A DNA stretch of 64,000 nt, taken from assembly GCA_965214705.1 (NCBI GenBank), contig OZ243972.1:3424001-3488000 (forward strand). Reading direction: 5' to 3'. This document shows positions 20,691 through 58,689 of this stretch, one piece after another (position 1 is the stretch's first letter; every line of letters starts with the position of its first letter). The notes beneath the pieces are model-generated. The model did no database searches. It was not told the DNA's origin and worked only from the letters and a program-made list of their open reading frames with translations. This DNA comes from Alphaproteobacteria bacterium (GTDB lineage Bacteria; Pseudomonadota; Alphaproteobacteria; UBA828). The position numbers and the translations under genes were made by a program.

Positions 20691-22048
20691 GCGTCATCGA
20701 CGTCGGCGGGCGGGCTTACGCGGCCGGGCTCTACTGGCTGGAGCGCGGCGGCGCGGGGGCCACCGCGCGGACGGCGCGCAGGCTGGACCGGCCGTGGTGC
20801 GTGCATCGCGGCGAGCGCACCGGCTTCGCCGCCGACGATACGGGGGAGAGCCCCGAAGGTCTTCCGGCGCTGGCGCTGGCGCTTCTCGCGTGCATCGAGG
20901 GCGCCTTCTGGATGGCGCTGCTCGAGGGGGATGAGGACCCGTCCGGCGGGCGCCGCTACGCGCTGGTGAAGGCGCGGGGCGGCACGGTGCTGGCCGACGG
21001 GGACGAGGTCTTCGAGGACCGGGCGGCGGCGCTGGCCGCGTTCGAGCGGGCGCGGCCGCTCGGCTGGTCGCTGTTCGCCACGCCGGGATTGCAGGACGAG
21101 GTTGGTGGCGCGGGCCGGGAGGTAGCCGCGCTGGATCCGGCGGCGCTGGCCGAGGCGGCCGCCGCCGCCGGGGATACGATCGCGCTCGCGCGCGCGGTCT
21201 CGCGGCGGCGCTGGCTGCGCCCGGTTGCGGCCGCGGCGGGCGTTGCCGTGCTGGTTGCGATCGCCGTGCTGTGGTTCGAGCGCGACGCGCTGATCGCCTG
21301 GCTGAGGGGGCCCGGGACGGGTGCGGTTGCGCCAACGGTGCGGCCCGATCCCGTAGTGGCGGTGGCGGTGGACGGCGCGGCGCTGATCGCGGCCTGCCGG
21401 GAGGCGCTGATCGCCCATCCCCCCTTCCTGCCGGCATGGCGGATCGAGCGCATCGAGTGCGCGGCGCGGTTTGCCGATCCCGAGCTGAGCGGGTTGGTGC
21501 CGGAGCTGGCGGGCCGGGCGGCGCTGCTGGTGCGCTGGGGGCTGAAGGACGGCCACGCGGAGGCGGTGCAGCGCCGCGTCGCGGAGAAACATCTGGCGCG
21601 CTGGCACGCGGCGGCGGTGGCCGGCGCAAGGGCCTGGGCGGCGGCGCCGCTCGGGCCGGTGCTGCGCGTCATGGGCACTCGTGCCGGCGACGCGCCCGCA
21701 CCGGCATTCGTCGAGCTGCGCCGCGAAGTGGACAGGGCCTTCGGCGCGGGCGGCGCCCGCGTGGGCTACGCCCGGGGCGCGGGCGGCGGATGGACGGTGC
21801 GCATCGACGAATACGGGCCGCTCGGCCGGCTCGGGCCGCTCGCGGGGGGCGTCGATGGCCTGGAGATCGTCGCGCTCGCGCGCGGCGAAAGCGGCCCCTG
21901 GCGGCTGGAAGGGCGGCCGGCGGCGCCGGAGAGGGTCGCGGCCTCGCGGCTGAAGGCCCTCGGGGTGACCGGCAGACCGGCCGCGGCAAGTAGCGGACTG
22001 AACCAACTGGAGAAGGAGGCGGAGGATGGAACGCAGAGGCACGAGTGA
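20687..22048 (+). CDS. pilO: Type IVb pilus accessory protein PilO
   Basis: GTGA overlap with pilN, N-terminal 'VIDVGGRAYAAGLYW', single central TM, canonical position after pilN. Confidence 0.75.
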   Translation: MSVIDVGGRAYAAGLYWLERGGAGATARTARRLDRPWCVHRGERTGFAADDTGESPEGLPALALALLACIEGAFWMALLEGDEDPSGGRRYALVKARGGTVLADGDEVFEDRAAALAAFERARPLGWSLFATPGLQDEVGGAGREVAALDPAALAEAAAAAGDTIALARAVSRRRWLRPVAAAAGVAVLVAIAVLWFERDALIAWLRGPGTGAVAPTVRPDPVVAVAVDGAALIAACREALIAHPPFLPAWRIERIECAARFADPELSGLVPELAGRAALLVRWGLKDGHAEAVQRRVAEKHLARWHAAAVAGARAWAAAPLGPVLRVMGTRAGDAPAPAFVELRREVDRAFGAGGARVGYARGAGGGWTVRIDEYGPLGRLGPLAGGVDGLEIVALARGESGPWRLEGRPAAPERVAASRLKALGVTGRPAAASSGLNQLEKEAEDGTQRHE

Positions 22049-23693: not shown

Positions 23694-24907
23694 GGCGGGC
23701 CTCTCACACCCTGTCAGTCAGGGGCGCGGCGCTGATGGGCATGCTCGCGGCGGCGTTCGCGGCGGACGCCGCATGGGGCCAGGCGGCGACGGGCCCGAAC
23801 TTCAGCTCCCATGCCGCGCCGTTCTTCGAGGAGCTGTTGGCGGGACGGGTGTGGGTGCTGGAGCGGCCCAACTCGTCGCGTGCGGACGACCGGGGCGCGG
23901 CCTGGGCGCACTACCACGCGCCGGACGGCACCCTGCTGGCCTGCGCCCATCTGGGCGGCGAATACGCCGGTGCGGAGGCGCGCTGGCGGGTTGTGCCCTC
24001 GCGCGCCTTCCGCGCGCTCTACAACTACCTGGAGCCGGGCGCCGAGCCCGATCCGGGCAGGCGCCGGGGGCACACGCCGATCTTCTACGACCCCGGCACC
24101 GGCGCGCTGCACAACGAGGCCACGGGGGATCAAAGCCGCTGGGCTGTCGCCTCGCGCGGCTGGGTGCAGGAGAGCTGGCCCGCAGTGATGAAGGAGGCCT
24201 GCCCGGACCTCTCCCTGCCCCGCTCCCTTCCGGTCAACCGGCGCCAGACCGCGACGCGCATCGACGAGATGATGGCGCAGGACCCGGACGCCGTGGTGCG
24301 CAACGCGCCGGGCTCGCACCTGCGTGGCCCCGGCGCGATCGGCATCGCTGCCGCACAAGGCCGGGCGCGGCTGCCGGCCACGGACCTCGCGAGGTTTCTG
24401 GCGGAGAACGATGGCTTCGTGCTGACGGACACGGCGGGCGCCCGGCACGTTCTGGTGCTGGGCGCAGACGGCGATGAGCTCTGGCTGCTCGACGCCGACG
24501 GCGGCGTGGTCGACACCGGGCTGCTGTTGCCGGTGGCGGGGGGCGCGGAGATCGCGGTGCACTACGCACGGCTGCCGGTGCGGCCCCGCTACCGGATCGG
24601 CGACGCCCTCCCCTTCCTGCCGACCGGCGAGCGCTTCGCGGCCATGCGGATCACCGACCGGGTGGCGGCGCAGGGGACGCCGGTGGTGCTTCCCGTGTCC
24701 GGCACGAGTGTCCCCGGGCGGTCGGAGACCGTGGTGCGGCTCCGAGCGGACGGGTCTCTCTTCGCGGAGGGCGGCGGCACGGAGACGGTGCCGGGAACCT
24801 GGCGCTGGTCGCGGGGCGAGCTGGCGGTGACGCTGGAAGGCGCGGCGGGCGAGGTGAGCATCCCTTGGCGGGTGCTGGCCGACCAGGCCGGGCCGGGACT
24901 CCGGTGA
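23690..24907 (+). CDS. Hypothetical exported protein
   Basis: GTGA and TGATG coupling with both neighbours and a signal-peptide-like N-terminus. No family recognised. Confidence 0.65.
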   Translation: MRRASHTLSVRGAALMGMLAAAFAADAAWGQAATGPNFSSHAAPFFEELLAGRVWVLERPNSSRADDRGAAWAHYHAPDGTLLACAHLGGEYAGAEARWRVVPSRAFRALYNYLEPGAEPDPGRRRGHTPIFYDPGTGALHNEATGDQSRWAVASRGWVQESWPAVMKEACPDLSLPRSLPVNRRQTATRIDEMMAQDPDAVVRNAPGSHLRGPGAIGIAAAQGRARLPATDLARFLAENDGFVLTDTAGARHVLVLGADGDELWLLDADGGVVDTGLLLPVAGGAEIAVHYARLPVRPRYRIGDALPFLPTGERFAAMRITDRVAAQGTPVVLPVSGTSVPGRSETVVRLRADGSLFAEGGGTETVPGTWRWSRGELAVTLEGAAGEVSIPWRVLADQAGPGLR

Positions 24908-25980
24908 TGGCTGCGGTTCGCATGCCCTGCCGGCTCCCGGTCCTGGTGCTGCTTGCCGCGTTGACGACGGCGGCGGCTTGGGCGGGCGATGCGCCGGTGG
25001 CGCCGTTCCCCGGCACGAGTGTCTCCGGTACGGACGTCGAAGGCAGGCAAGAGAGCCTGCCGGAGCAGGCGCCGGAGGCCTCGGACGAGGCGGCGTCGGA
25101 AGCCGGAGCGGAAGCGGTGGGTGTGGCCGTGCCGGCGGTCGATGCGGGTCCTTCGGAGGCTGCGGTGCCCGACGGCAGCATGGCTGCGGAGAAACCGGCA
25201 GCGCCGGCGGGCGGCAGCCGCCTGCTGCGTGCGCTGGCCGATCTGCCGAAGACAGTCGGTCGGGCGCGGAGCGATGTTCCGGGCGACGTCACCCGCCCCG
25301 GAATCCCCCGGGTGTTTGCGGCCGAGGGATGTCCGCGCGCGCTGCTGCGCCGCCTGCTGGCGGGCGCGGCCGGCGAGGCGGATGCGCTGTCCGCGCTCGG
25401 GATCGAGCGGGAGATCCTCACCCTCTGCCGCGAGCGCCAGGAGATCGTCGCTGGGCTGTTGGAGACCGAGGCGCGGCTGAGCGAGCTGCGCGAGGCCGGG
25501 CGAGGCCCGGAGCCGGAGGCGGCGGCCTCGGCGGCGAGCGCGGTCCCGACGCCCCGGGTGGAAGCGGCTGGCGAGGCGCCAGCTATTGCAAGGGCTGCCG
25601 CGTCGCCCCTGCGTGCGGCGCTCGGCGGCGCGGCAGAGAAAGCGAACGAGGCAGACACTCCTGCCGGAGACACTCGTGCCGGAGGTCCTCAGGGCGGAGA
25701 ACCGCGTGGCACGGAGCCGCGGAGTCCGGCACGCGTGTCCCCGGCACGAGTGCCTCCGCGCTACGCGTGGTTCTCGATCATCGGCACCGCGGGCGCGCTC
25801 CGTGCGGGCGTCACCGACGGGACAGGCGTGTGGTTCGTGCGCGAGGGCGACCCGCTGCCGGGCGGCGCGACGATCGCCGCAATCGCGGGAAGGCCGCCGG
25901 CCGTCCGGGTGACGGGCGCCGGAGAGAGTGGGGAAGCAACCCTGCTGCCCTTCCGCGCGAGGCCGGGAGGAGTCCCGTGA
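24907..25980 (+). CDS. pilP: PilP-like type IVb pilus biogenesis protein
   Basis: C-terminal 'FSIIGTAGALRAGVTDGTGVWFVREGDPLPGGATIAAI', a coiled coil, and position directly before the assembly ATPase. Confidence 0.6.
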   Translation: MAAVRMPCRLPVLVLLAALTTAAAWAGDAPVAPFPGTSVSGTDVEGRQESLPEQAPEASDEAASEAGAEAVGVAVPAVDAGPSEAAVPDGSMAAEKPAAPAGGSRLLRALADLPKTVGRARSDVPGDVTRPGIPRVFAAEGCPRALLRRLLAGAAGEADALSALGIEREILTLCRERQEIVAGLLETEARLSELREAGRGPEPEAAASAASAVPTPRVEAAGEAPAIARAAASPLRAALGGAAEKANEADTPAGDTRAGGPQGGEPRGTEPRSPARVSPARVPPRYAWFSIIGTAGALRAGVTDGTGVWFVREGDPLPGGATIAAIAGRPPAVRVTGAGESGEATLLPFRARPGGVP

Positions 25981-27707
25981 GGAGTCCCGGGCAGTTGGTT
26001 GGCCAGTGGCTCGGGGACTGGCGTGGGCGGGCGCGTGCGGCGGCCGAAGCTGCGATCGGGCGGCTGGACGGAGGCCGCGGCGGAGCCGGGAAGGCGCCGG
26101 CGCCGGGCGGAGACGCTCGCGCCGGTGACGCTCGCGGCGGGGACGCCCGTGCCACCGACCTGCCGATCGACAGCAGCGCGATGGACGCGCGCTTCCGCCG
26201 GCTCTGCGCCGTCTTCGCCGACGGGCGCTGCCTGATCGCCGAAGGCTACGAGCCCGACGACCGGCTGCGCCTCGACCTGGTGAAGCTGCGCGAGGCCGGA
26301 ACGATCCCGGCGGTGCTCACGGAAGAGAGCGTGACGCTGGAGGAGATCGCGGCGCTCTGGCGGGTGCATGAGGGCGGCTCCGCGCCGGACGGCGGCGGCG
26401 CGGCCACGCGCCTGCGCTCGCTGCTGAAGGACGCCGCATCGGCGAAGGCCAGCGACGTGGTGTTCGAGCAGGGCCCGGACGCCTGCAAGGTGTTCTGCAT
26501 CGTCAACGACCGCAAGCTGCCGCTGTGCCCGGCCCTCACCCCCGAGGAGGGCCGCCGGGTCATGGGCTTCCTCTTCCACTGCAAGGACGAGGGGAGCTCG
26601 CAGACCAGCTACCGCCGCGCCTCCTTCCAGGGCTTCTCGATCCGCGCCGGCGGCGCCGTGCCCCTGCCGGGCGGCATCTCGGCGCTCCGTTGCGAGCGCG
26701 GGCCTCACGACCCCGACGCCGACCACCTCTTCGCGCGCCTCTTCTACACCGACCGCCTGGATCCGGACACGACGCTGGAAGGGCTGGGGTTCAGCGAGCA
26801 GGAGGCCGCGCTGTTCGCCGAGATCCGCATGGCGATGCAGGGCGGGGTGTTCATCGGCGGGCGCGCCGGCGACGGCAAGAGCACCACGCTCGCCGTCAAC
26901 CTGGCGCTCCAGATGGCCGAGATGGCGGGCCAGCTCAACCTGGTGACGCTCGAGGACCCGGTCGAGTACCGCATCCCCGGCGCGATCCAGATCGCGGTGC
27001 CCACGTCGGGCGCCGGCGAGACCCGCGCCGGACACTTCAAGGAGGCCCTGATGCACTTCTGCCGGGTGCATCCGGCGTCCGGCATGGTCTCGGAGATCAG
27101 GGACGCCGACGCCGCCCGGCAGGTGCTCCAGTGCGTCGACACCGGGCACCAGATCTGGACCACCATCCACGTCCACAACGCCAACGCGATCCCCTTCCGG
27201 CTGATCGACATGGGGGTGGGCGCGGCCGAGGTGGCGAAGCCCGGCAACGTGGCGCTGCTGATGAAGCAGACGCTGTTGCCGAAGCTGTGCCAGGCCTGCG
27301 CGCTGGACCGCCCGGCGGGCGGGCGTGCGGTGCCGGAGGGGCTGATTTCGCGCCTCGGCGGGATCGAGGGGCTGCGCTTCAGGAACGCAAAGGGGTGCGT
27401 CGAGTGCCGGCGGAAGGGCGGCGGCAAGGTCTCGGCGCGGGCCTGGAACGGCTATCTCGGCCAGACCGCGATCGCGGAGTCCATCCGCCCGGACGCGGGC
27501 TACCTGCGCTTCGTCCGCGCGGGCGATCCCCTCGGCGCCTGGGCGTACTGGCGAAGCGAGATGGGCGGCGTTCCCATCGGGGTGCGCATCCGCGCCATGG
27601 TGAAGCAGGGCGCGGTCGATCCCTTCGACGCGCTGCTCAAGGGCGGAGCGGGAGAGCACGAGGCGCAGGCCGATCCCGTGCCCGACGATCCCGGAGACAC
27701 CGCGTGA
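25977..27707 (+). CDS. pilQ: Type IVb pilus assembly ATPase (PilQ/GspE family)
   Basis: Walker A 'GRAGDGKSTT', 'TLEDPVEY', 'SEIRD', 'TGHQIWTTIH' and CxxC pairs. GTGA overlap. Confidence 0.9.
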   Translation: MRSPGQLVGQWLGDWRGRARAAAEAAIGRLDGGRGGAGKAPAPGGDARAGDARGGDARATDLPIDSSAMDARFRRLCAVFADGRCLIAEGYEPDDRLRLDLVKLREAGTIPAVLTEESVTLEEIAALWRVHEGGSAPDGGGAATRLRSLLKDAASAKASDVVFEQGPDACKVFCIVNDRKLPLCPALTPEEGRRVMGFLFHCKDEGSSQTSYRRASFQGFSIRAGGAVPLPGGISALRCERGPHDPDADHLFARLFYTDRLDPDTTLEGLGFSEQEAALFAEIRMAMQGGVFIGGRAGDGKSTTLAVNLALQMAEMAGQLNLVTLEDPVEYRIPGAIQIAVPTSGAGETRAGHFKEALMHFCRVHPASGMVSEIRDADAARQVLQCVDTGHQIWTTIHVHNANAIPFRLIDMGVGAAEVAKPGNVALLMKQTLLPKLCQACALDRPAGGRAVPEGLISRLGGIEGLRFRNAKGCVECRRKGGGKVSARAWNGYLGQTAIAESIRPDAGYLRFVRAGDPLGAWAYWRSEMGGVPIGVRIRAMVKQGAVDPFDALLKGGAGEHEAQADPVPDDPGDTA

Positions 27708-28756: not shown

Positions 28757-29427
28757 CCCAAGCGAAAGGAGACATCATGAGAGACACTCGTGCCGGAGAA
28801 ACCGCAGGTTTCGGGCCTTCCGGCCTCCCTTCTTCCGGCCTCGCGACAGGCGGCGCCCGGCGATCGATACGGCGTTTCGGCGCCAGGCGCTGGCGGCGCG
28901 GCTTCAGCCTGTTCGGCGTGCTGCTCGGGCTCGGCCTCGCCGCCGTGGTGATCGTCGGCGCCGTCGGCACCTACAACGCGGCCCGGGAGGCCGCCAACCG
29001 GAGCGCCGCGCTGACGCTGCTGAGCCAACTCCGGGCCAACGTCGAGGCGGCCTTCGCCGGCGCACCGAGCTACGGCAACAATGCCGACCTGGTGCCGGCC
29101 ATCGACCGGCGCGGCGGCATCCCCGGCGGCGCCCGCGTGGCGGCCGGCAGCGGCGTCGAGATCCGCCATCCCTTCGGCGGGGAGGTTACGGTCACCGGCG
29201 GGCCGGGCGGGATCACCAACCGCTTCCGCATCACCTTCGAGGACGTGGACGACGCCATCTGCGCGGCGCTGGGCGACGCTTTCGCCGGGCGCAGCCGCGC
29301 CCGCGCCGGCCTCGTGCAGATGACGATCAACGGCACCGGGCTCGCCTCGCCCGTGACCAACGCCCAGGTCACCGCCAACTGCGACGACGGCGATGCCGAC
29401 AACGACATCGGGTTCACTTTCGGATGA
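28753..29427 (+). CDS. pilS: Type IVb major prepilin (PilS family)
   Basis: Long basic leader, 'RRG|FSLFGVLLGLGL', 'IRHPFGGEVTV', and a C-terminal Cys pair. Confidence 0.85.
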   Translation: MTQAKGDIMRDTRAGETAGFGPSGLPSSGLATGGARRSIRRFGARRWRRGFSLFGVLLGLGLAAVVIVGAVGTYNAAREAANRSAALTLLSQLRANVEAAFAGAPSYGNNADLVPAIDRRGGIPGGARVAAGSGVEIRHPFGGEVTVTGGPGGITNRFRITFEDVDDAICAALGDAFAGRSRARAGLVQMTINGTGLASPVTNAQVTANCDDGDADNDIGFTFG

Positions 29428-30782
29428 CGGCCGGAGGCCGAAGACCCTCGGGCTCGGGGTCGAAGGGCATGGATGCGCGGCAGCCGACGTCCAGGCGGAG
29501 ACCCGTGCCGGAGAAACAGCGCAGGCGCGGGGCGTACCAGGGCGTTCCCCTGTACCGGGGCGTTCCCCCGTTCCGGCTTATCCGCCTGCGCCTGATGAAG
29601 CTGAGGCCGCTCCCGTGGCGGGGCCGGGGCACGCGCGGTCGCGACCGGCGCGGTCGCGACCGGTGCGGCGCGGGCGCGCTACTCGGCGTGCTGCTGCTGG
29701 GAGCGCTGGCGGGCGCGGCGCTGGCAGTTCACTACGAGACGCGGGCGGCCGAACGTGTGCAGGCCCTCGACCGCGCCGCGGGCCGCGTGTTCGCAGGCTG
29801 GGTGCATGCGGCGCACCGGGCGACCCAGGCCCACGCCGACGCCTTCGAGACGGCGCTCGAGACCCAGGTGGGTATCGTGCTCACCGTGGCGCGGTTGAGC
29901 GCGCTGGGCGCGGCGCCGCCGGACCTGCCCGCGCGTCCGGGGCGCAACGCCGCCATGACGCTCGGGGTCATCCCGGACGGCACGTCCCGGCGGACTCCGA
30001 TGGCGTTCGGGGTGCTTGAGCCCGCCGCGTCGTCGCGCCCCACGGCGATGCGCGAGGGCGCGCTGGAAGCGGGCCTCGCGGCGGTGGCGCCCGGCGGGGG
30101 CGCGCTCATGGAGGGGCACAGGCCGGCGATCGAGGCGGCGCTCGGCCGGATCCTCGGCGCGGACGCCCTCTGGGTCACCTCGGACCGGGGAATTCGGTAC
30201 CGCGAGCGCGCGCTCCATCGCCGCGCGCAGCCGGGTCGGCCCTGGCTCAACCGCATGGAGACCACGCTGGAGATGGCCCCGCCCGGCGCCGCGGACCCGG
30301 CGCACCCCGCGCGGCGGAACATAACGGATGCGGGTGCGGTGGACGCAGTGTCGGCCGAGGCCGGGACCGACGTGGCCGCGGGCGGGGACGCAACGGCGGG
30401 CGGCCGCGCGGATGCGGCGGGGCTGAGGGCGGAGACGGTCGAGGCGGGCGATCTCGCGGCGTCCGCGTTCGCGGTGACCGCCGATCTCGTGGTGGGCGCC
30501 GCCGTCACCGGGCGCCTCGCGGCCGACCGGGTGACGGCGACCGGGCCTCTGGAGGCCGGCGCTGTTCGCAGCACGGGCGCGCTCGATGCGGCGGCGCTGT
30601 CGGTGGCCGGGGACGCGGCGGTCGAAGGGGCGGCGGGGGCACGGGCGGTTGCCAGCGAGACTCTCGACGTGACGCAGTCGCTGAGCGGATCGCGGACCGC
30701 AGCCGGCGGTGTCTACGGCCCCGACGCCACGATCTCCGGCCTGCTCACCGTCGGCAGCTGCGCCGGCTGCGAGGGGCAGTAG
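29424..30782 (+). CDS. PilV-like minor pilin/adhesin 1
   Basis: Hydrophobic N-terminal helix, 'LHRRAQPGRPWLNRMETTLEM' (PilV shufflon-N-like motif), A/G/T/V-rich beta repeats, C-terminal CAGC. Start uncertain. Confidence 0.65.
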   Translation: MTAGGRRPSGSGSKGMDARQPTSRRRPVPEKQRRRGAYQGVPLYRGVPPFRLIRLRLMKLRPLPWRGRGTRGRDRRGRDRCGAGALLGVLLLGALAGAALAVHYETRAAERVQALDRAAGRVFAGWVHAAHRATQAHADAFETALETQVGIVLTVARLSALGAAPPDLPARPGRNAAMTLGVIPDGTSRRTPMAFGVLEPAASSRPTAMREGALEAGLAAVAPGGGALMEGHRPAIEAALGRILGADALWVTSDRGIRYRERALHRRAQPGRPWLNRMETTLEMAPPGAADPAHPARRNITDAGAVDAVSAEAGTDVAAGGDATAGGRADAAGLRAETVEAGDLAASAFAVTADLVVGAAVTGRLAADRVTATGPLEAGAVRSTGALDAAALSVAGDAAVEGAAGARAVASETLDVTQSLSGSRTAAGGVYGPDATISGLLTVGSCAGCEGQ

Positions 30783-30785
30783 GCG

Positions 30786-31952: not shown

Positions 31953-32338
31953 TGCGGGGGCCGGCAAGGAAGAGGAAGGGCGGGGCCGCGATGGCGTTGG
32001 CGGCGGCGCTTGTCCTGGTTTCGGCGATGCCGGTCCCGGCAGGGGCGGGCGACGAGGAAGCGTGGGACGCCGAACGCGCTTTCGTCGAGATGGAGCGGCT
32101 GCAGACGGAGATCGGGCTGCTGCGCGCCCTGGCCGGCGCGCAGGCGGCGCTGCTGGCATGGACACTCGTGCCGGAGAACCGCGAGCGGTCGGAGAGCGGC
32201 GGCGCCCTGGAGGTGCTGGCGCCGCATCTCTGCATCGAGGAGGCGCTGCGGCCCTGGTGCCGTGCGCTGCCGGCCACCTTCGGCGCGGAAGCGGCAATGG
32301 CGGCGGACGACGCAAACGGGAAGGACGGGGGACGATGA
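31952..32338 (+). CDS. Small hypothetical exported protein
   Basis: TGATG and ATGA coupling, signal peptide, short coiled coil and a Cys pair. Confidence 0.6.
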   Translation: MRGPARKRKGGAAMALAAALVLVSAMPVPAGAGDEEAWDAERAFVEMERLQTEIGLLRALAGAQAALLAWTLVPENRERSESGGALEVLAPHLCIEEALRPWCRALPATFGAEAAMAADDANGKDGGR

Positions 32339-33633
32339 CGGATACGGTTCTGGCGGGCGCCGTGCTCGTGGCGATGGCGGCGCTGGCCGTCCACGACGCG
32401 CGGCGCGCCCTGGTCGACCCGCGCATGGTCCTGGCGCTGCTCGGAGCGGCGGCGGCGTGGCGCTTCGGCGGCGGCGGACCGGAAGGGGACGGCACCTGGC
32501 CGCGTCTGGCGAGTGGCGTGCTGGGGGCGGCGCTCGGCGTTGCCGCCGTGATGATTCCCATCGCCCTCGCCGCCTGGTGCGGGCGGCGCTGGCCGCTCTA
32601 TCCGGGCGACGCGATGCTGCTGGGGGCCGTGGGGTTCCTGCTGGGGCCGCTCGGCCTCGCCTGGGCCATGGCGCTGGGCGCCGGCGCGGGGCTGCTCTAC
32701 CGCTTCTGCGTGCAGCGCAAGCGCGGCCGGCCCTTCCGCAAGGGGCTGGTGCCGCTGGGTCCCGGCATGTGCGCGGGCGCGGCCGCCGTGTTCCTGTGCA
32801 TGAACTTCGGCGTCGCCCTGGCGGGGAACACTGGTGCCGGAGACCCTCGGGCCGAAGACCCTCGGGCCGAAGACGGCGTGACGATCGCTCCCCTGACACC
32901 CCCGGCCGCGGAACGATCGGCGCAATCGGCGCTTCCGGCGACCGAGCTTGGGCCGGCGCTGGGTTCCCTTCCGGCGGCGCTGGCCGCGCGGGAGATCTCC
33001 GTCGAGTGGGACGGGCGGGTCCCCTTTCCGGCGCTGGTGCGGCGTCTCTCGACGCTTGCCGGCACGGCGATACGGATCGAGGAGCGCCCGGCACGCATCG
33101 AGGACGGGGCGGCGGTGCTTGCCGATCCACCCGCGCTGCGCCTCGCCTGGCAGGGACCGCTCGCCGGCCTCCTCGACCGGGTGGCCGCGCTCAGCGGTTA
33201 CGCCTGGTCCTGGGAGACGCTCGCGCCGGAGACCCTCGTGCCGGAGACACTCGTGCCGGAGAACGGCGCCGTGGTGTTCTTCCGCTACTGGGACGTCGCG
33301 CAGCACGGCCCGGAGCACGGCGGCGAAACCGGCGATGCCGAGGATGGCGATGGCGGCGCGCCGGAAACCGGCGGCGGCTGGACCGTCGATCCGGACGAGC
33401 ACCGCACGCTGAGGGGCGTGCTGGAGGCGTGGGCGGCGCGTGCCGACTGGACGCTGGTCTGGAAGGCGCGCGAGGACTACGGCCTGGGCGCCGCGGCAGT
33501 GTTCGAGGGCGCCTTCCTGGAGGCCGCCGACGTCCTGCTCAGCGGCCCCGCCACGCGCCGGACATTGGACGTCCGCGCCTATGCGGCAAACCGCCACCTG
33601 GTGGTGGACGACGCCGACGGGGCGGGCTGGTGA
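32335..33633 (+). CDS. Prepilin peptidase (A24) fused to a PilL/TcpQ-like domain
   Basis: TM N-terminal half with the catalytic Asp motifs 'AVHDARR' and 'PGDAMLL' plus 'VPLGPGM'. C-terminal 'TLRGVLEAWAARADWTLVW...DY' is TcpQ-like. Confidence 0.75.
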   Translation: MTDTVLAGAVLVAMAALAVHDARRALVDPRMVLALLGAAAAWRFGGGGPEGDGTWPRLASGVLGAALGVAAVMIPIALAAWCGRRWPLYPGDAMLLGAVGFLLGPLGLAWAMALGAGAGLLYRFCVQRKRGRPFRKGLVPLGPGMCAGAAAVFLCMNFGVALAGNTGAGDPRAEDPRAEDGVTIAPLTPPAAERSAQSALPATELGPALGSLPAALAAREISVEWDGRVPFPALVRRLSTLAGTAIRIEERPARIEDGAAVLADPPALRLAWQGPLAGLLDRVAALSGYAWSWETLAPETLVPETLVPENGAVVFFRYWDVAQHGPEHGGETGDAEDGDGGAPETGGGWTVDPDEHRTLRGVLEAWAARADWTLVWKAREDYGLGAAAVFEGAFLEAADVLLSGPATRRTLDVRAYAANRHLVVDDADGAGW

Positions 33634-34163
33634 GCGCGCCGCGCATCATGGCCCTGCTGCGGGCGGCCGCGCTCCCGGTCCTGCTCGCGGGTCCGCTTGC
33701 TGGGTGCGTGTCTTGGACGCCGGAAGCGCCGACGACGGTTGCGCCCGTGCGGACCGATCCCGTGGAGATCCGCCTGGTCGAGGCCGTCGAGCGCGCCGAG
33801 CGGGCGCTGGCTTCGCTCGCCCGGACGGTGCCGGCAACGGATCCGGAGGCGAGGCTGCCGGACGCACGGTCCGTGCCCGCCGCGCTGCGCACGCCCGTGA
33901 CGCTGGACTGGACCGGACCTGTGGACGCGCTGGCGGAGGAGTTCGCGCGGCGGGCGGGCTACCGTTTCGCGGAAGCCGGCCGTCCGCCGGCGCGGCCCCT
34001 GATCGTGTCCGTCGAGGTGGTCGCGCAACCGCTGATCGCGGTGCTCCGCGACGCGGGCCTGCGCGTGGGCGCCGCCGCCACGCTCACCGTCGATGCGGAG
34101 CGGCGGACGATCCTGCTCGACTGGGCCGCGCCGCCGGCGCTCACGCCGGAGAGGGACCGGTGA
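33630..34163 (+). CDS. dotD: DotD/TraH family lipoprotein
   Basis: Lipobox 'LAGC', 'VTLDWTGPVDALAEEFARRAGYRF', and dotD-dotC-dotB order. Confidence 0.85.
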   Translation: MSAPRIMALLRAAALPVLLAGPLAGCVSWTPEAPTTVAPVRTDPVEIRLVEAVERAERALASLARTVPATDPEARLPDARSVPAALRTPVTLDWTGPVDALAEEFARRAGYRFAEAGRPPARPLIVSVEVVAQPLIAVLRDAGLRVGAAATLTVDAERRTILLDWAAPPALTPERDR

Positions 34164-45260: not shown

Positions 45261-47420
45261 CCCAAGTTGGCACTTTTCCGCTGCCTGTGTTCCCTATTGG
45301 TTTGATTCAACGCGATATTTTTCTCGGTCGATTCCAACATGGCCCCACATTTTGTGAGATTCTGTCAGCTCATCAGACGGGTCCTCGTGCGGTGGATGGC
45401 GGGGTCCACGCCCGCCGCCGAGGAGATTGCGGCAACCTCGGCGGCCGGGCGCGTGTCCTGGCGGTTGACGATCAAGGTGCCGTCGGTCTGGCGCAGGCGC
45501 GTGGTGATCCGCACCCAGGTCCGCATGCTCTCGCGGATCGACGCCCAGCACTTGTGGATGCCGCGCGCGGCCAGCCGGGTACGGATCAGATGCACGGCGT
45601 GGTAGGCCAGCACGGCGATCAGCAGGTGGGCCGCGATGCGCCGGTCGAGCTGGTGCCAGATCGGGCGAAGGCCGAGCTCGGATTTCAGGCTCCGGAATGT
45701 CGCCTCGATATCCGTGATCCGCCAGTACGTCCGCAGGACCGTCTCGATGTCCCAGTCGACGTGGCTGGTGCGCAGCACATAGGCACCGGCGCCCTCATCG
45801 GCCTCGTCGTATCGCGGCCTGCGCTTGAAGCGCACGGCGGTGGCATTGGGGCCGGTTTTCGCCCTCTCGACCGTGATCTCGTAGTGCCTGGCGACGGCGG
45901 AGAAGCGCTGCTTGAGGCGGCCTATGCTCTCCAGCACCTTGTCGTAGCGCTTGAGGCGGCCCTTGACCGCAAGGCCGCCGTGGAGCCTTTCCAGCGCCGC
46001 CTCGAAGCGGTTCCGCCTCAGGCCGATGATCGCGTTCTCGGCCTTCTTCTTGCCCTCGCTGACGACGTAGAGCCGCGCCTCGCCGTCCTCGCTGGCAAGC
46101 CGCCAGGCCCGCACCTCGTGGCGCGCGCTGGTGATCAGCAGGGCCTCGGGTCCGCCCTCGGGCGGCGCAGGCCTGGCACCGCGGCTGACCGCGATCCAGT
46201 CGTAGCCCTGCTCGCCCAGCCACGCGATGTTTTTCTCGGTGGCGATGCCCGCGTCCATGACCACCGTGGGCTTCGGCGCCGTGCCGCCGCACACCGCCTC
46301 GAGCCGCGCCAGCGCCTCGTGCAGCGTGCCCGGCTCGCTCACGTTGCCCGGCAGGATCTCGCAACTGCGCGGGAAGCCCGCGCCGTCGAGCGCCAGCGCC
46401 AGCGTGATGAGGGGACAGTCGTCGCGCTTCTGCTTGGAGCGCCCGAACCTGGGAAGCTCGCCGCCCGTGTGGCCGTGGTAGTGGACGTTGGTGAGATCGT
46501 AGAAGGCGATCGTCTCGGGCAGGTCGAGCAGTGCGCGCTCACGGTTGAACAGCTCCCGCTGGATGGCGGCGCGGTGGCGCCAGAGCAGGTCGCCGATGCG
46601 GTAGAGCGTCTTGCGCCGCAGCGCCTTGCGGTCGCCCTCCAGGCCCAGGAGCTCGGCGGCCGCGCTGTCGTGGCGGAGCCAGCGGCTGGTATCACGCTCG
46701 CTGGCGGGATGGACCATCCTGGCGACGATCAGCGCGCTGGCGATGCGCCCGTCGCGGCCCTTGATGTCGAGGCCGTGGAGGATTTCGGCGAAGCCGAGGG
46801 CGTCGAGGGCCTTGAGGCACAGGCGCTCGCAGCCGACCGTGCGCGGGTTCTCGTGCTCCAGGGTATCGAGGTCGACGGTGGCGATGTCGGGCTTGCGCGC
46901 CTCTTCCTGCATCGCCTCGACGCGGAACCCCCTGGCCCTGAGCTTGGCGACGATGTCCTCGGCTGCGGCCCGCACATCCGCCTCGCCCTCGAACAGCGGC
47001 GGCTTGCCGTGAAGCAGCGCCTCGGCGAGTTCGGTGACGGCCTTCCACTTCTCGCGCGGCACCGGATAGTCGGTGCCGAGATTGAGCAGCGTCCTGTGGC
47101 GCACCTTGTCGCCGACGCGCTGGGCGAGCACGAGGCGATGGCTTCGGACCGGCTGGCCGGCCTTGTCGGTGTGTGTCCTGGTTGCCTTGATGTACATGGC
47201 GGCGCCGTTTCTGCGATGCCTGTTTCGCATACACGGCGTTCGCGGCATCTGGCAAGAGGGATATCGACTCAACTCCAAAGTCCTGGCCCCACAATTGGCT
47301 TCCAGGACCACGAATGGCAAATGTGGGTCTCAGGTGTCCTCCAACCCCAACATCTAGTGGTTCAGCGCCGCAAAACTGGCTCGAACAGGCTCGGCTGGTC
47401 GGAAAAAGTGCCAACTTGGG
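45261..47420 (-). mobile_element. IS1634-family insertion sequence, 2160 bp
   Basis: IRs CCCAAGTTGGCACTTTT / AAAAGTGCCAACTTGGG and a TCAT duplication at 45257-45260 and 47421-47424. Confidence 0.9.
45365..47197 (-). CDS. IS1634-family transposase
   Basis: 'MYIK...KVRHRTLLNLG', 'FYDLTN', 'GRSKQKRDDCP', 'VVMDAGI', 'IEATFRSLKSELGLRPIWH'. Confidence 0.9.
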   Translation of the reverse strand: MYIKATRTHTDKAGQPVRSHRLVLAQRVGDKVRHRTLLNLGTDYPVPREKWKAVTELAEALLHGKPPLFEGEADVRAAAEDIVAKLRARGFRVEAMQEEARKPDIATVDLDTLEHENPRTVGCERLCLKALDALGFAEILHGLDIKGRDGRIASALIVARMVHPASERDTSRWLRHDSAAAELLGLEGDRKALRRKTLYRIGDLLWRHRAAIQRELFNRERALLDLPETIAFYDLTNVHYHGHTGGELPRFGRSKQKRDDCPLITLALALDGAGFPRSCEILPGNVSEPGTLHEALARLEAVCGGTAPKPTVVMDAGIATEKNIAWLGEQGYDWIAVSRGARPAPPEGGPEALLITSARHEVRAWRLASEDGEARLYVVSEGKKKAENAIIGLRRNRFEAALERLHGGLAVKGRLKRYDKVLESIGRLKQRFSAVARHYEITVERAKTGPNATAVRFKRRPRYDEADEGAGAYVLRTSHVDWDIETVLRTYWRITDIEATFRSLKSELGLRPIWHQLDRRIAAHLLIAVLAYHAVHLIRTRLAARGIHKCWASIRESMRTWVRITTRLRQTDGTLIVNRQDTRPAAEVAAISSAAGVDPAIHRTRTRLMS

Positions 47421-49811
47421 TCATGCGGCGCATGGTGAACGGCACGGCGTCCACGGCGCCGGACTGGCGCCCGGTCACCGTGGCCAACGATGCGCCGGCG
47501 CGCTTCACGGAGCCACCGGAGGCGGGCGCTTTGCCGCCGCCCCTGGCGCCGCAGCTCCTGGTCCGGGAGCCCGAGCGGAGCGGCGGCGGCGTCCGCATCG
47601 GCGCGCGCCTCTACGGCGCTCTCGACATGAGCCTCGGGCCGAGACGCTCGCGCCCCTTCGCCGAGCTGATGGCGGGGCTCGCCGCCGCCGGTCTTCCCTG
47701 CCGGTTCTCGCTGCTGATCGAGGGCGGCGGGCTGCACCGACTCGACGCCACCGTGGCGCGCGTGGCGTCCTCCTTCCTCGCCTTCTCGTCCTCCGACAGC
47801 CTGCTCGCGCGGAACGCGCTCCGAGACCTCGCGGCGCTCGGCGGCGACGCCCATGCCATCGTGCGCCTCCGCCTCGGGCTCCTCACCTGGGTCGGAGCGG
47901 AGGACGGCGAACAGGCGCTGGCGGCTCGCCTCGGCCGCCTGCAGCAGGTGGCCGAGGGCTGGGGCGAGGCGGTGTTCACCCCGCTCACGGGCGATCCACT
48001 GGAAAGCCTTGCCGCCTCGGTTCCCGGCTTCTGCTGCGGCGCCACCGCGCAACCCGCCCTCGTGCCGATCGCCGAGGCGCTGCGCCTCTTTCCGGTCGGT
48101 CGCCCGGCACCGCTCTCACGTCTCTCGGCCGAGGCAGGGGGTGCCCACCTCTTCCGCTCGCCGGACGGCAAGCCCCTGCCGCTGGCGGCCGGCGAAGGCG
48201 GTGACTACGGCTTCGAGCTGATCTATGGCCTGCCCGGCCAGGGCAAGTCGGTGCTGATGAACGCGCTGGGCCTCGCGTTCTGCCTGCAGGGAGGGCAGAC
48301 GCGCCTGCCGCTGGCCGCCGTGATTGACATCGGCCCGTCGTCTTCCGGGCTTGTCTCGCTGGTGCGCGAGGCGCTGCCGGCAGAGCGCCGGCACGAGGCC
48401 GGCTGGTTCCCGCTCCGCATGACCTCCGAACACGCCATCAATCCCTGCGATACCCAGCTCGGCTGCCGCAGCCCGCTCCCGGCCGAGCGCGCCTTCCTGA
48501 CCAACCTGCTCGGCCTGATGGTGACGCCCGCCGGGGACAGTGGCGTGCCCGACGGCATGCGCGAGCTGCTCGGGCCGACGCTCACCGGCGCCTACGCCAT
48601 GCGCTCGGACAGGATGGCGGGCGCCGAGCCTCACGACTACACGCAAGGCCGCGACGAGCGCGTGGACGCGGCGATCGCGGAAGCCGGCCTCCGGCTGCCC
48701 GAAGCTCCGCTCTGGTGGGACGTGGTCGACCTGCTGTTCGAAGCGGGCGAGATCGAGGCGGCGACCAGGGCTCAGCGCTACGCGGTGCCGACCCTCGTGG
48801 ACCTGCTCGCCTCGGTGCGCGAGCCCGCCGTGCAGGGGCTGGTGGGGGACGCGCGGTACGGCTCGGGCTGCGAGACCGTCACCCAGGCCTTCATCCGCAT
48901 CCTCACGGCTCTCTCCGGCGACTGGCCGGTAATGTTCTCTCCCACCGCCTTCGACGTCGGCGGCGCGCGCCTCGCCGCCATCGACCTCGCCGAGGTGGCG
49001 CCGCAGGGCTCGGCCGAGGCCGACCGCCAGTCGGCCGCCTTCTACCTGCTCGCGCGCCACGCGCTGACCCGCCACTGGTGGATCGGCGAGGACGCACTGG
49101 CGTCCATTCCCGAACCCTACCGGGAATGGCACGCATCCCGGCTCCGCGACATTCGCGAAGCACCCAAGCGGCTCTGCTACGACGAGTTCCACCGCACCGG
49201 CGGCGCGCCGGCCGTGCGCGCCCAGGTCGAGCGTGACGTGCGCGAGGCACGCAAGCTCAGGGTGCGGCTCGCACTGGCCTCCCAGCGCCTCGACGACTTC
49301 GGCGGCGCGCTCGCGGAGTTCGCCAACCGTTACTGGATCCTGGGAAGCGGCGGCAAGGCGAAGGAAGCCGAGGCGCCCGCCGCCACGTTCTCCCTGACGG
49401 ACACGCTCTCGGAGGCGATCCGCTACCGGCTCACCGGACCCGGCCGCGACGGCGCGCCGGCACTGCTGATCGCGAGCGGCCAGGGCGGTCGCTTCGAGCA
49501 GCTGGTCGTCAACACGCCGGGGCCGGTCGAGCTCTGGGCGCTCACCACCAGCCCGGCGGACGTGGCGCTCAGGCGGCGGCTCTACGCGCTGCTGCTGCCG
49601 GCGCAGGCCCGGGCGGCGCTCGCCAGGGCGTTCCCGGAGGGCACGGCGCGAAGCCGTATCGAGCGCGAGCTCGCGCGCATGGATTCGCCGGAGGCCGGAC
49701 GCGCGGCGTCCGAGGAGGCGGTGCTCGACCGCCTGGCGGACGAGGTCGCGCGGGCGGCCGGCAACGAGCAACCCCATTCAGCCGATAACGCAACCTGAGA
49801 GGAGGAAACAC

Positions 49812-51911: not shown

Positions 51912-51915
51912 GGCG

Positions 51916-54192: not shown

Positions 54193-54237
54193 CCGGGCCG
54201 CGGCGGGGTCAACGATCGAGGGAGGTCTTCACACGCC

Positions 54238-56876: not shown

Positions 56877-57009
56877 CGGCGCCGGAGCCGGCCGGAATAT
56901 CGCGCCCCCGCGCAGCTTTCCTGCGCGCGCCTGCCCCGGATGGAGAGCGCGGCGGGGCACGGCGCCCCGGAGGACACTCGTGCCGGAGATGGCCGGAAAG
57001 GAGCGCTAG

Positions 57010-58689
57010 ATGACCGACAGCGACGGCACCGAGACCGCCGAGACGGCGATGAGCAACGCGTTCGACAGGGCGGGCTATACTAGCCCCGGCGCCGACGCGC
57101 CGTCCGACGATGGGCCGGAGCCCCGGCATTACGCCTCGCCCACCGCCGCCATCTGCGACCACGCCGCCCTCTACGGCGCCACCCCCGAGCCCGGCGAGCC
57201 CGACAACCGCGTCGTCTGGGACGAAGCCGAGGCCGTCGCCGGTATCGAGCAGACCGTCCACACGCTGATCGAGAACGTCGTCCCCGACGGCACCCAGCTC
57301 GCCGACGAGCGCGAGGGCCTGCTGTGGGGGTTTGTGAACATGCTGCACGCGCAGGCGGACCGCATCGACCGGACGGCCGACAAGATCGTTCTCGAGATGC
57401 GCGACCTCGAACGCGCCCAGGACGGCACCGAGGTGAAGGCCCTCGAGCTGGAGCGCCTTACCGAGCGCGCCAGGAACCTCGGCGATCGCCGCGACGCCTT
57501 CGAGACGATGCGCGACTTCGCCGCGGACGCGTACCGCGTCGAGACCGGCCAGGTCTGGCGCCCGCGCCGCGGATCGCATACCAGCCGGACCGGCCAGCTC
57601 ACCTCCGCCGCCATTGACGCCCGCGACTTCCGGCGCGCCCGCAAGGACAGCGAGACCCGCGCGCACCTGCCGCAGGGCACCCTGGTGGCCATCGCCGGCG
57701 GCAAGGAGGTCGCGGACGGCGCCGCCGTCTGGACCACGCTCGACCGCACCCGCGAGAAGTACGGCGACATGGTCCTGCTGCACGGCGGCAGCCCCGGCGT
57801 CGAGAAGATCGCGGCGAGCTGGGCCGAGGCGAGGGGCGTCGACCAGGTGGTGTGCCGCCCGGACTGGAACGCGCACGGCAAGGCCGCGCCCTTCCGCAGG
57901 AATGACGAGCTGCTGAACCTGTTGCCCAAGGGCGTCATCGCGTTCCCCGGATCGGGCATCACCGGAAACCTGGTCGACAAGGCGCGGAAGCTCGGCATCC
58001 CCGTTTACCGAGTTCCCGAGCGCACGGAGGCGACACCCCTGGTGCCGATCTATGCCGGGGTCGGCGCCCGGGCGACGCCCGAGCCGGTGCTCGCCCACAT
58101 GCGGGAGATCGCGGAGCGGCTCGGCGAGCGCGGCTGGCGGCTGCGCACCGGCGGCGCGGACGGGGCCGACAAGGCTTTCGCCGCCGCCGCGCCCGCCGAC
58201 CGGCGCGAGGTCATCGTGCCCTGGCGCGGCTACAACGGCCTGGACACTGGTGCCGGAGACGGGAGCGCCTGCCGCGTGCTCACGCCGGCCGAGATCGAGG
58301 CGATGCGGCCGCTCGCAGAACCTCACCATGCCGCATGGGAGCGCTGCGCGGCGAAGGTGCGGGACCTTCACGCCCGCAACGTCGCCGTCCTGCTGGGAAC
58401 CGATCTGAAACAGCCGGCGCAGGCCGTGGTGTGCTGGACCAGGGACGGCCAGGACTACGGCGGTACGGGACTGGCCATCCGCCTCGCGCAGCATCACCGG
58501 ATCCCGGTTCTCAACCTCGCCGAGATGGATATGCGCACGGCGATGGATCGCCTGGAACGGATCGCACAGACGCTCGACCGCAGGAACGACAAGCAGGAAG
58601 CCGTCGGCGGCCGTTCCGCGGACGCAGACCGGCACGCGTCGGCCGACCGGGTGCAAAAGGCGACCCGGCAGCGCTCCATGCATCTCTGA
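57010..58689 (+). CDS. DUF2493/YspA-like SLOG protein with a second C-terminal SLOG domain
   Basis: SLOG1 'VAIAGG...VLLHGG...AAPFRRNDELL...VIAFPGSGITGNLVDKA'. SLOG2 'YAGVGARATP...LRTGGADGADKAF...ARNV...GGTGLAIRLA..HRIPVLNL'. Confidence 0.8.
   Translation: MTDSDGTETAETAMSNAFDRAGYTSPGADAPSDDGPEPRHYASPTAAICDHAALYGATPEPGEPDNRVVWDEAEAVAGIEQTVHTLIENVVPDGTQLADEREGLLWGFVNMLHAQADRIDRTADKIVLEMRDLERAQDGTEVKALELERLTERARNLGDRRDAFETMRDFAADAYRVETGQVWRPRRGSHTSRTGQLTSAAIDARDFRRARKDSETRAHLPQGTLVAIAGGKEVADGAAVWTTLDRTREKYGDMVLLHGGSPGVEKIAASWAEARGVDQVVCRPDWNAHGKAAPFRRNDELLNLLPKGVIAFPGSGITGNLVDKARKLGIPVYRVPERTEATPLVPIYAGVGARATPEPVLAHMREIAERLGERGWRLRTGGADGADKAFAAAAPADRREVIVPWRGYNGLDTGAGDGSACRVLTPAEIEAMRPLAEPHHAAWERCAAKVRDLHARNVAVLLGTDLKQPAQAVVCWTRDGQDYGGTGLAIRLAQHHRIPVLNLAEMDMRTAMDRLERIAQTLDRRNDKQEAVGGRSADADRHASADRVQKATRQRSMHL

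Follow-up and report, generated by a model that had tools for sequence, protein, structure and literature searches.

A 15-bp frame-neutral DNA unit inserted through the transfer genes of conjugative elements in one alphaproteobacterial genus

Variable number tandem repeats (VNTRs), or coding minisatellites, are bound to one locus and are changed by slipped-strand mispairing. In pentapeptide-scanning mutagenesis, engineered transposons leave a net 15-bp insertion of five codons, in which 5 of the 15 bp are a target duplication. The Rickettsia palindromic elements (RPEs) are described as in-frame selfish repeats of ∼150 bp that fall into several families and give one conserved peptide each (PMC10969869). 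PARCEL is described as a 25-residue protein domain, recognized by a protein hidden Markov model, in open reading frames (ORFs) of unknown function, whose DNA is dyad-symmetric, linked to mobile elements and spread horizontally (PMC2996958). Repetitive extragenic palindromic sequences (REPs) are described as extragenic, 20–40 bp long and provided with a GTAG or CGTC head (PMC3733652), and quasipalindrome-associated template switching, stimulated by protein blocks, is described in E. coli at imperfect inverted repeats and replication blocks (PMC7202029, PMC6357072). The present analysis concerns a 15-bp unit, GAGACACTCGTGCCG (called U15), in a stretch of 64,000 nt from an alphaproteobacterial genome (positions 3,424,001–3,488,000 of contig OZ243972.1; the whole stretch is called the window). 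U15 has defined ends and one fixed register and inserts next to GA, mainly within the genes of a conjugation operon (called g1, g2 and so on).

U15, and probably the 18-bp units described below, are read here as self-copying, frame-neutral DNA micro-insertion modules, and neither as a protein motif nor as a conserved binding site; a probability of about 0.4 is given to this reading. U15 resembles the RPEs in acting at the DNA level, in being dispersed and in frame in many unrelated alphaproteobacterial genes, in having several families and in apparently being tolerated by the host proteins; the RPEs lie in metabolic genes across the chromosome, whereas U15 occurs only in conjugative elements (with the exceptions given below) and forms head-to-tail arrays. 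Like the RPEs it stands in frame in many unrelated genes, in its case more than 20 from two conjugation systems, but neither a stem-loop of ∼100–150 bp nor a single peptide was found. With PARCEL, U15 shares coding repeats with dyad-symmetric DNA and the association with mobile elements, while U15 lacks any identity as a protein and interrupts genes that are known and otherwise conserved. Array length at a given site differs among relatives (2–4, 2–5 or up to 7 units), as in a VNTR, yet U15 occupies on the order of a hundred sites, many of them with single private copies. It is short, GC-rich, partly palindromic and present in many copies in both orientations, as are REPs and REPINs, and an inverted pair in g5, private to the window copy of the element, has a REPIN-like layout; unlike REPs with their REP-associated tyrosine transposase (RAYT), U15 is nearly always intragenic, and the genome gave no Y1_Tnp match. 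Template switching in E. coli likewise copies without a transposase, but it corrects or changes sequences in place and is not known to disperse a fixed 15-bp module. The net 15-bp insertion tolerated in permissive sites recalls pentapeptide scanning, except that all 15 bp are constant in U15 and no target duplication was seen. The genome-wide over-representation and above-average conservation of DNA uptake sequences (DUS/USS), Chi and parS-like motifs were not found for U15, nor were the reverse transcriptase (RT) and template copy that stand next to the targets of RT-templated systems (diversity-generating retroelements, retrons, telomerase-like systems). No compared system unites a 15-bp unit, use of six frames, a fixed register, about a hundred sites and confinement to conjugative elements. 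Neither the exact 15-mer string nor a description of such a unit was found in literature searches of main texts without supplements.

The window (70–76% GC) lies on contig C1 of a genome, G000, of 7.92 Mb in three contigs (67% GC, 98.5% complete). It contains six exact copies of U15, compared with none in 100 shuffles, and 30 matches with up to three mismatches against 5.54 expected (sd 2.39, largest 16); 24 of the 30 fall between 19480 and 38784, inside the 21-gene conjugation operon. Genome-wide, 22 exact copies, 48 copies with at most one mismatch and 115 with at most two were counted. Five mobile-element regions account for all 20-kb bins with at least two matches at up to two mismatches, and the remainder of the genome is at background level. 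In addition to the window element, G000 holds three further elements of the same type (P1, P2 and P3), and three copies (E1, E2 and E3) of an unrelated F-type transfer element account for the other three U15 clusters. An earlier note, which had proposed from these letters that a fixed 15-bp sequence was seeded through the pilus and conjugation genes, is borne out by this enrichment, and nearly all the loci it listed were recovered to within a few bases (Table 1). At its locus 29497 no match within three substitutions is present (a 13-nt remnant, GGAGACCCGTGCCGGAGAA, remains), but the place can be regarded as a decayed copy because the orthologous place in element G003 reads CGGACACTCGTGCCGGAGAA; at 36582 the periodic stretch is real, with the different extent given in Table 1. 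The absence of good copies from the adhesin, the insertion sequence (IS) elements, the ABC gene and traA was also observed, the large ORF having three-mismatch matches only.

An assembly, adapter or polishing artefact, in favour of which nothing was found, has a probability next to nil. Contigs assembled from public runs of two studies (X1 and X4 of one, X5 of the second; Logan contigs of four runs from mixed samples) hold unit-bearing stretches of the window with 0 differences, the unit is present in the genomes of 11 other species and in 13 metagenome contigs, and the copies show decay and family structure; the artefact that the earlier note had named as a possible refutation was therefore excluded. 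Other runs, labelled sponge or coral metagenome, have small shares of 0.15–0.22, which are no evidence of habitat.

Table 1. Coordinates of the units, operon and elements discussed (window positions, unless a contig is named).
Feature	Position	Strand	Remarks
Conjugation operon, 21 genes	18933–40134	+	Overlapping stops and starts; from a frame plot of GC at third codon positions and a start-codon search
g1, U15 with 2 mismatches	19480–19494	−	Read AAGVS; clean 15-nt insertion relative to P1
g2, decayed U15	21672–21686	+	Read GTRAG; clean 15 nt, none in P1, P2 or P3
g4, U15 with 1 mismatch	24700–24714	−	Read SGTSV; 15 nt missing in G003, G001 and G008
g5, exact U15	25011–25025	−	Read GTSVS
g5, two plus units (25652–25681) and two minus units (25727–25756)	25652–25756	+ and −	45 nt apart; within an insertion of ∼29–35 aa private to the window copy
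g6, 2.6 units, G-C variant GDARAGDARGGDARA	26108–26146	+	N-terminal region of ATPase; related array in P1, none in P2 or P3
g8, exact U15	28781–28795	+	Pilin gene, codon 10; read DTRAG; empty in G003, G008, G001 and G012
g9, decayed U15 remnant	29495–29513	+	G003 ortholog still has a copy with ≤2 mismatches
g9, U18 array, 2.4 copies, consensus GGGAGTTCCCCTGTACCA	29533–29576	+	
g11, U15 copy	32159–32173	+	Read TLVPE; cleanest case, TG-GACACTCGTGCCGGA-GAACC
g12, three units, mostly C-G variant, GNTGAGDPRAEDPRAE	32825–32869	+	Partly common to P1 and G003; none in P2
g12, three units, ETLAPETLVPETLVP	33214–33258	+	Hot site, 2–4 units in six elements; clean 45-nt gap in P2 and P3
g14/g15 junction, C-G-type match with 3 mismatches	34960–34974	+	Also in G003 and G020; uncertain whether a unit or a chance match
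g17, decayed array of ∼4 units, VSDPGVSGTRVSGASV	36566–36631	−	Hot site, 2–5 units in six elements
g18, copy with 3 mismatches	36995–37009	−	P1 has three RPEGL units there
g18, exact U15	37265–37279	+	Read ETLVP; CCGGAGAC on both flanks; G003 has two units
g20 (DotH), two units	38755–38784	−	Read GTSVSGTSV; just N-terminal of a conserved strand; one unit in P1; P2 and P3 shorter by 5–7 aa
Just upstream of YAcAr/SLOG gene start (57010), copy with 2 mismatches	56971–56985	+	Homologue of the gene in L007 holds exact U15 copies
Within YAcAr/SLOG gene (57010–58689), copy with 3 mismatches	58241–58255	+	
Exact U15 copies in the window	25011; 25667; 28781; 33244; 37265; 38755	−; +; +; +; +; −	
Six remaining window matches, ≤3 mismatches	5920; 6946; 14989; 47641; 56971; 58241		Beyond the 24 between 19480 and 38784
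Loci of the earlier note, recovered	21672; 25652/25667; 26110; 28781; 32159; 32825–32869; 33214–33258; 37265; 56971; 58241	+	
Loci of the earlier note, recovered	24700; 25011; 25727/25742; 36602/36617; 38755/38770	−	
Five U15 regions of G000	Window; C1 1.26–1.30 Mb; C1 1.94–1.98 Mb; C1 3.02–3.04 Mb; C3 0.22–0.26 Mb		
P1	C1 1.274–1.310 Mb		75–84% nucleotide identity to window
P2	C1 1.615–1.653 Mb		66–75% nucleotide identity to window
P3	C3 337–370 kb		67–75% nucleotide identity to window
Stretches matched by run contigs, examples	24595–25787; 32696–33618; 36803–37424		0 differences

The window genes were aligned with those of P1, P2 and P3 at the protein and DNA levels, and gaps of five residues, or multiples of five, were found in an otherwise conserved context. 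In g2 the window reads VMGTRAGDAP where all three paralogues read I-----ADAP, and in g11 it reads LLAWTLVPENRE where the homologues read LLAW-----NRE; a 15-residue ETLAPETLVPETLVP block in g12 is present in the window and P1 and missing from P2 and P3, and a 29-residue block in g5 is private to the window. Seven further type IVB elements from other species of the genus, which together with P1–P3 and the window make 11 aligned elements, gave a like pattern, the 15 nt of the g11 copy being missing in six homologues and those of the g8 copy in four. The five-residue units in g1, g2, g8, g11, g12, g5 and g20 are thus clean insertions, as the earlier note had suspected for several copies. For its locus 37262 (the exact copy in g18), read as an insertion between CCGGAGAC flanks, the flanks are present, but because no empty homologue was found among those aligned, that claim stands on self-similarity only. 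Among the F-type elements, E3 has private 15-nt inserts at two places in TraC, and a 45-nt insert in TraK is private to E1 and E2, E3 being without it; the F-type gap evidence is limited to the clear alignment rows (TraH, TraC, e13 and TraK columns 556–571), four of which were checked at the DNA level. The unit-coded stretch of DotH aligns with a variable segment of Legionella IcmK.

Nine junctions with empty homologues were read by eye, each of which allows 2–7 registers through sliding. The type IVB junctions were those of g11 in the window, g11 in G012, the pilV/g11 overlap in G001 and G012, g8, g2 and g1; the F-type junctions were TraC-middle and TraC-C-terminal in E3 and TraK in E1/E2, with the TraH case left out of the count for want of a clean empty partner. 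Register 3 is allowed by every one of the nine and is the only register that they all allow, and two pairs have no other register in common. The chance that nine random intervals of these widths have a common register is ∼1e-5 by our own arithmetic. Because all nine include register 3, the insert is GAC(A/C)CTCG(T/G)GCCGGA (GACACTCGTGCCGGA), that is, a 12-bp quasi-palindrome followed by GGA. The base before the insert is a purine in 9/9 junctions and the two bases after it are GA in 7/9. No target duplication was found at the junctions examined; models with a 3-bp or 5-bp duplication were ruled out by eye, as the two flanks differ, and cutting and ligation at CCGG was ruled out by the g11 and g8 targets, which have no CCGG. 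Microhomology was seen in 17 isolated perfect copies, in which the match to the periodic consensus extends 4.1 nt beyond the 15-mer, compared with ∼1.0 expected from composition (at least 4 nt in 10 of the 17; binomial P 1.7e-10), and the right flank opens with GA in 11. Positions 1–2 of first or single copies are the most variable; the variants GG, CA, CG, TG and AG cluster there because these two positions are target bases in single or first copies.

Insertion is frequent and the copies turn over. Between the window and G003, its closest relative (88% identity), 45 gap events were counted in the 21 genes: 16 have a length of exactly 5 aa, 22 a length that is a multiple of 5, and 21, nearly half of the total, are unit-like. 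In the reading proposed here, U15 would be the dominant indel process of these conjugation operons. Over the 21 genes and 11 elements, 115 site clusters were obtained, an upper bound that includes double counts at gene borders and chance matches among those with two mismatches, and many are found in a single element only. Copies of all three kinds, private, shared and decayed, were seen, so the coexistence of perfect and decayed copies pointed out earlier does reflect repeated insertions of differing age. At one mismatch or less, carriers have 7–34 copies per 20–40 kb, while P2, P3, G035, G220 and G184 have 0. Since the identity of unit bases is close to that of the genes as a whole (0.78 vs 0.78 for window–P1; 0.877 vs 0.881 for window–G003), orthologous copies show no visible extra constraint; 30–70% of unit bases face a gap in relatives, and the alignment quality of gap-rich regions limits this comparison. 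Hot sites hold 2–7 units, the number varying among relatives at g12, g17, g5, g18/g19 and g9. Ordinary coding tandem repeats, or protein-level selection for flexible linkers acting independently at each site, would be in keeping with this variation (at g12, g17, g18/g19 and g5) and with the location of most copies in N-terminal or linker regions, as in DotH. Such an origin is nonetheless very improbable: an identical 15-mer, on either strand, is read as six peptides across two unrelated secretion systems and in more than 20 of their genes, themselves unrelated, and local slippage cannot account for private sites with a single copy. To explain the copies, a process is needed that writes a short, fixed sequence into DNA, as proposed before.

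The readings ETLVP, DTRAG, GTSVS and ARVSP given in the earlier note were all confirmed, as was the lack of a stop codon in any of the six frames of the tandem unit. In the 11 type IVB elements, 118 of 165 copies could be placed in the gene frame, and all six frames are used. The A-T form is read as ETLVP (20 copies), DTRAG (13), GTSVS (25), ARVSP (4), RHSCR (6) and RHECL (1); it is thus rare (7/69) in the two frames that give His and Cys. A C-G form, GAGACCCTCGGGCCG, differs at positions 6 and 11, which turns the RHSCR/RHECL frames into RPSGR/RPEGL, and this form, without His and Cys, sits in those frames in 16/31 cases. Positions 6 and 11 change jointly and in a complementary manner (A-T 115, C-G 61 and G-C 5 of 205 copies), but this pattern was not used as evidence of base pairing because loss of His and Cys codons explains it at least equally well. 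With an identical 15-mer in six frames and on both strands, the conservation is at the DNA level and not at the protein level, as had been claimed; U15 insertion acts at the DNA level and is followed by a reading-frame filter at the protein level.

As self-copying micro-insertion modules, the units would enter a target beside GA, one at a time or in head-to-tail runs, and in both orientations. With its length of 15 bp, U15 never breaks the frame, and selection would retain only copies in tolerant linkers and tolerable frames; after a first copy, more would arise in the same element, and arrays would grow and shrink. We infer that the generator is a replication-coupled copy-paste process that would need no dedicated transposase: a nascent strand ending at a target GA would realign on the GA at a unit edge, copy whole units and return. 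The single-stranded and rolling-circle phases of the elements would favour such a template switch. Seeding would take place in cis within an element, which would explain why P2 and P3 are without U15 although they share a cell with five carriers.

Several observations weigh against this proposal. The fixed register and constant GA are not predicted by plain microhomology switching in DNA of 75% GC, where GC-rich microhomologies should be commoner, and they fit sequence-specific cleavage equally well or better. A homology of two nucleotides is very short for strand realignment. The register itself was derived from nine junctions only, read by eye, and a tenth (g4) gave a tie between register 3 and registers 4–6. 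Template switching leaves the confinement to mobile elements unexplained, and the only exceptions to it that were seen are the hydantoinase gene on metagenome contig L017 and a lone copy at C1:1581760. The quasi-palindromes in all three unit families suggest recognition by something. A direct array of three U15 units folds worse than its shuffles (z +2.06; 198/200 at least as good), so that a hairpin stall as trigger is unsupported for U15, because direct arrays do not fold as single strands. Finally, no 15-nt indel was found among 12 of 97 rows of run contigs, and within that scope neither a de novo event nor an empty/filled polymorphism within a population was seen. A hairpin within the unit was ruled out on the same ground of folding. 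The inverted arrangement in g5 (25652–25756, 105 nt) behaves differently as a single strand, forming a long hairpin of −35.9 kcal/mol (z −4.9; 0/200 shuffles as good).

The junctions would also be accounted for by an enzyme, in that a sequence-specific nuclease, strand transferase or recombinase would cut arrays at GGA^GAC and join unit-length pieces into R^GA sites; it could be encoded by the host or by the element, such as a relaxase acting at pseudo-nick sites in the transferred single strand. A single register fits 9/9 junctions, the targets are like the inter-unit junction (purine before in 9/9, GA after in 7/9), the variability of positions 1–2 of first or single copies is as expected of target bases, and the inserts are integer numbers of units. 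Moreover, the units keep to conjugative elements, which have a single-stranded DNA stage and relaxases of their own, and they occur in one genus, 74–76% identical relatives elsewhere having none. This alternative is possible but somewhat unlikely: no candidate enzyme was found, two of the four type IVB paralogues are without U15 despite common backbone genes, 15 nt is far under any known mobile unit, the 18-bp unit would require the same or a second enzyme, and the insert is variable in its last three bases (GGA, GGG, GGC, AAA). In its strongest form, which is unlikely, U15 (GACACTCGTGCCGGA) and the 18-bp units would be the smallest mobile DNA elements yet seen, moved by cut-and-paste or by copying through a sequence-specific enzyme that acts on single-stranded transfer intermediates at R^GA, and persisting because their length keeps reading frames open. 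If true, they would amount to natural pentapeptide scanning, with continual remodelling of the loops of mating-pore and pilus proteins.

The genome-wide searches left the earlier statement that no responsible enzyme is visible standing. The Y1 HUH transposase (Y1_Tnp, PF01797) gave 0 matches in G000, while control genomes were matched. The RT family RVT_1 gave 57 matches in G000, all multi-copy and none inside the conjugation modules. These matches fall into a few near-identical families with open frames of ∼440 and 560 aa, and are probably group II introns; two lie at C1 3.4965 and 3.498 Mb, just past the window end. A long master array or template next to an RT or HUH gene, which had been suggested, was not found: because the longest run in G000 is 3–4 units (7 in one metagenome contig), there is no master array, the RTs are located elsewhere and there is no Y1 HUH match. 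Telomerase-like addition at breaks, another earlier suggestion, found no support. No part of U15 matches the IS ends, the two IS types of the window having unrelated ends, and unit words were found neither at IS copies nor elsewhere in G000; an IS footprint or excision of a miniature transposable element with inverted repeats (MITE) was ruled out, since the IS ends are unrelated to the unit and the flanks differ on both sides.

Among the genomes searched, U15 is restricted to one genus, where it lies on two conjugation systems that are unrelated to each other and in a few genes beside them, namely those of the single-stranded DNA-binding protein (SSB) and YAcAr. Of 20 other species of the genus, 11 have the exact 15-mer, always clustered, as against 0 of 20 genomes from elsewhere; a reversed control pattern gave 0 in the same 20 + 20 genomes. 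Its exact dimer occurs at four loci in three genomes among the species representatives scanned, all labelled Rhodospirillales or Alphaproteobacteria metagenome-assembled genomes, and in 13 metagenome contigs, of which 11 represent the same type IVB element, one an F-type element and one the hydantoinase gene. The last (L017:1077–1136, on a contig of 64.6% GC) has two exact units and one decayed unit within a hydantoinase/oxoprolinase gene and is the only clear copy outside the genes of conjugative elements. No match to the U15 dimer was found among viral contigs, and none to 1.8 kb of the window (32335–34163) among plasmids. Type IVB elements with a 74–76% identical TraJ occur in other families, but the relatives outside the genus (G035, G220 and G184) showed local tandem repeats only and no dispersed unit, whatever its kind. 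P2 and P3, in the same cell as five U15-bearing elements, have no U15 at one mismatch or less, yet they contain a second unit. The SSB tail holds U15 both in the F-type E1 and in the type IVB element of G003, and is a possible bridge between the element families through homologous exchange.

Two chromosomal copies were noted in passing. The lone copy at C1:1581760, in a stretch of 70% GC, has the sequence GWETLVPETVRP with a decayed second unit after it, and a one-mismatch copy at C3:2044382 is read QTLVP.

A k-mer screen revealed the second dispersed frame-neutral unit, U18, of 18 bp (GGGAGTTCCCCTGTACCA). At up to three mismatches it was found 13 times in P3, 5 times in P2, 3 times in P1 and once in the window (29540, inside the 2.4-copy array), its sites in G000 being window 29533–29576, C3 ∼340.5–367.8 kb and C1 1.630–1.651 Mb. 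It is also present in G008, G001 and G012, and thus in all four type IVB paralogues and three elements of other species, and it was found neither in the F-type elements nor in the relatives outside the genus. At the g9 site, with conserved flanks, G003 has 0 copies, the window 2, G001 2 and G008 3. A third unit, also of 18 bp (GCACCCCTGCGGGTGGGC, read APLRVG-like), occurs at several sites in P3 (C3 ∼346.8–347.0 kb and 353.5 kb) in arrays of ∼3 and ∼5–6 copies and as single copies. The lengths of all three units are multiples of three. By reading of the sequence, U15 and U18 are quasi-palindromic (GACAC-TC-GTGCC and GGGGA-AC-TCCCC) and the third unit weakly so (ACCC...GGGT).

This symmetry bears on whether the units are protein-binding iterons, that is, sites for an element-encoded dimeric or ribbon-helix-helix-type protein acting in silencing, as a roadblock or in partition, with selection for more sites in a costly transfer operon and with a unit and protein of its own in each lineage. 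The dyad symmetry of U15 and U18 (weak in the third unit), the tandem arrays in both orientations and the confinement to transfer operons agree with such sites, as do the lineage-specific unit types (U15 in the window/P1 clade and F-type, U18 mainly in P2, P3 and G008) and the joint, complementary change of positions 6 and 11; in addition, a protein found next to G003's type IVB operon is 49% identical to an HTH_17 protein of the F-type element. Iterons are nevertheless decidedly unlikely. The conservation of orthologous copies does not exceed that of the genes, and many of these copies have been lost or have decayed; neither operon has a copy upstream or in its promoter region; the pairing of positions 6 and 11 can also be put down to the loss of His and Cys codons from two frames; the unrelated hydantoinase gene holds a copy; and a generator of 15-bp insertions would still be required. 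The protein-binding mark (DUS-, Chi- or parS-like) offered earlier as one explanation is accordingly weakened, U15 being neither genome-wide nor conserved in excess nor clustered in a promoter region.

If the reading as self-copying insertion modules holds, selfish or mutational coding insertion at the DNA level can work on a scale of five codons and can dominate the indel spectrum of an operon. The units offer a natural experiment on the tolerance of insertions by individual loops in pilus and type IV secretion proteins, and U15 is a marker for tracing this conjugative-element family within the genus. Given the fixed register and the GA target, the mechanism is directly testable, with enzyme-free template switching on one side and a site-specific activity tied to conjugative single-stranded DNA on the other. 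For annotation, the units create GGAG resembling a Shine-Dalgarno sequence, in-frame GTG and repeated peptides, which could mislead gene callers and protein-repeat classifiers. In plus orientation, U15 has GGAG followed by GTG 6 nt later. In G001 and G012 (L026:13215–13235; L027) one unit lies exactly in the pilV/g11 stop/start overlap GGTGATG, where the insert parts the two genes and leaves GGAGATG before the g11 start.

The host operon was characterized by Pfam and PDB comparisons. Its thin-pilus set comprises a secretin-like protein (g1), a T2SSE ATPase (g6), a T2SSF-like protein (g7), a PilS-type pilin (g8) and a Shufflon_N/PilV-like protein (g10), the secretin and T2SSF matches scoring under the Pfam cut-offs. 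The type IVB set comprises DotD (g13), T4SS_TraI (g14), a second T2SSE ATPase (g15), DotI/IcmL (g19) and DotH/IcmK (g20), the last matching Legionella IcmK (PDB 6x62, E 4.6e-27). An IncI-type thin pilus and a type IVB conjugation system were thus found in one operon, whose R64-style gene names are presumably appropriate; no shufflon recombinase was seen. On its 3′ side lie two IS elements, SSB, a coupling protein, the YAcAr/SLOG protein and a TraA-like helicase. The F-type element has genes for TraE, K, B, V, C, U, N, F, H and G, TrbC, SSB, TraD and a TrwC relaxase. Altogether, G000 has four type IVB and three F-type conjugative elements, all of 71–75% GC in a genome of 67% GC; E1 and E2 are mirror-image copies 1.05 Mb apart with a common 8-kb core that is 99.96% identical.

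The two IS types of the window (40216–41717 and 45261–47420) belong to DDE_Tnp_1 and are present in dozens of 99–100% identical copies on all three contigs. A group II intron was ruled out for the 2.16-kb multi-copy element at 45261–47420, which encodes a DDE transposase. One IS interrupts a large type IVB ORF (45287–49798), and, judging from split matches, the pilR- and traJ-like genes of P2 appear to be interrupted as well. The YAcAr/SLOG gene has more than 25 paralogous segments of 70–85% nucleotide identity on all three contigs, several of which adjoin conjugative elements. At the other end of the window, a perfect pentanucleotide microsatellite, (AGCCG) x 10.8 at 1222–1275, lies between an ORF ending at 970 and an ORF of 4761 aa (1322–15607), for which it is a possible slippage switch.

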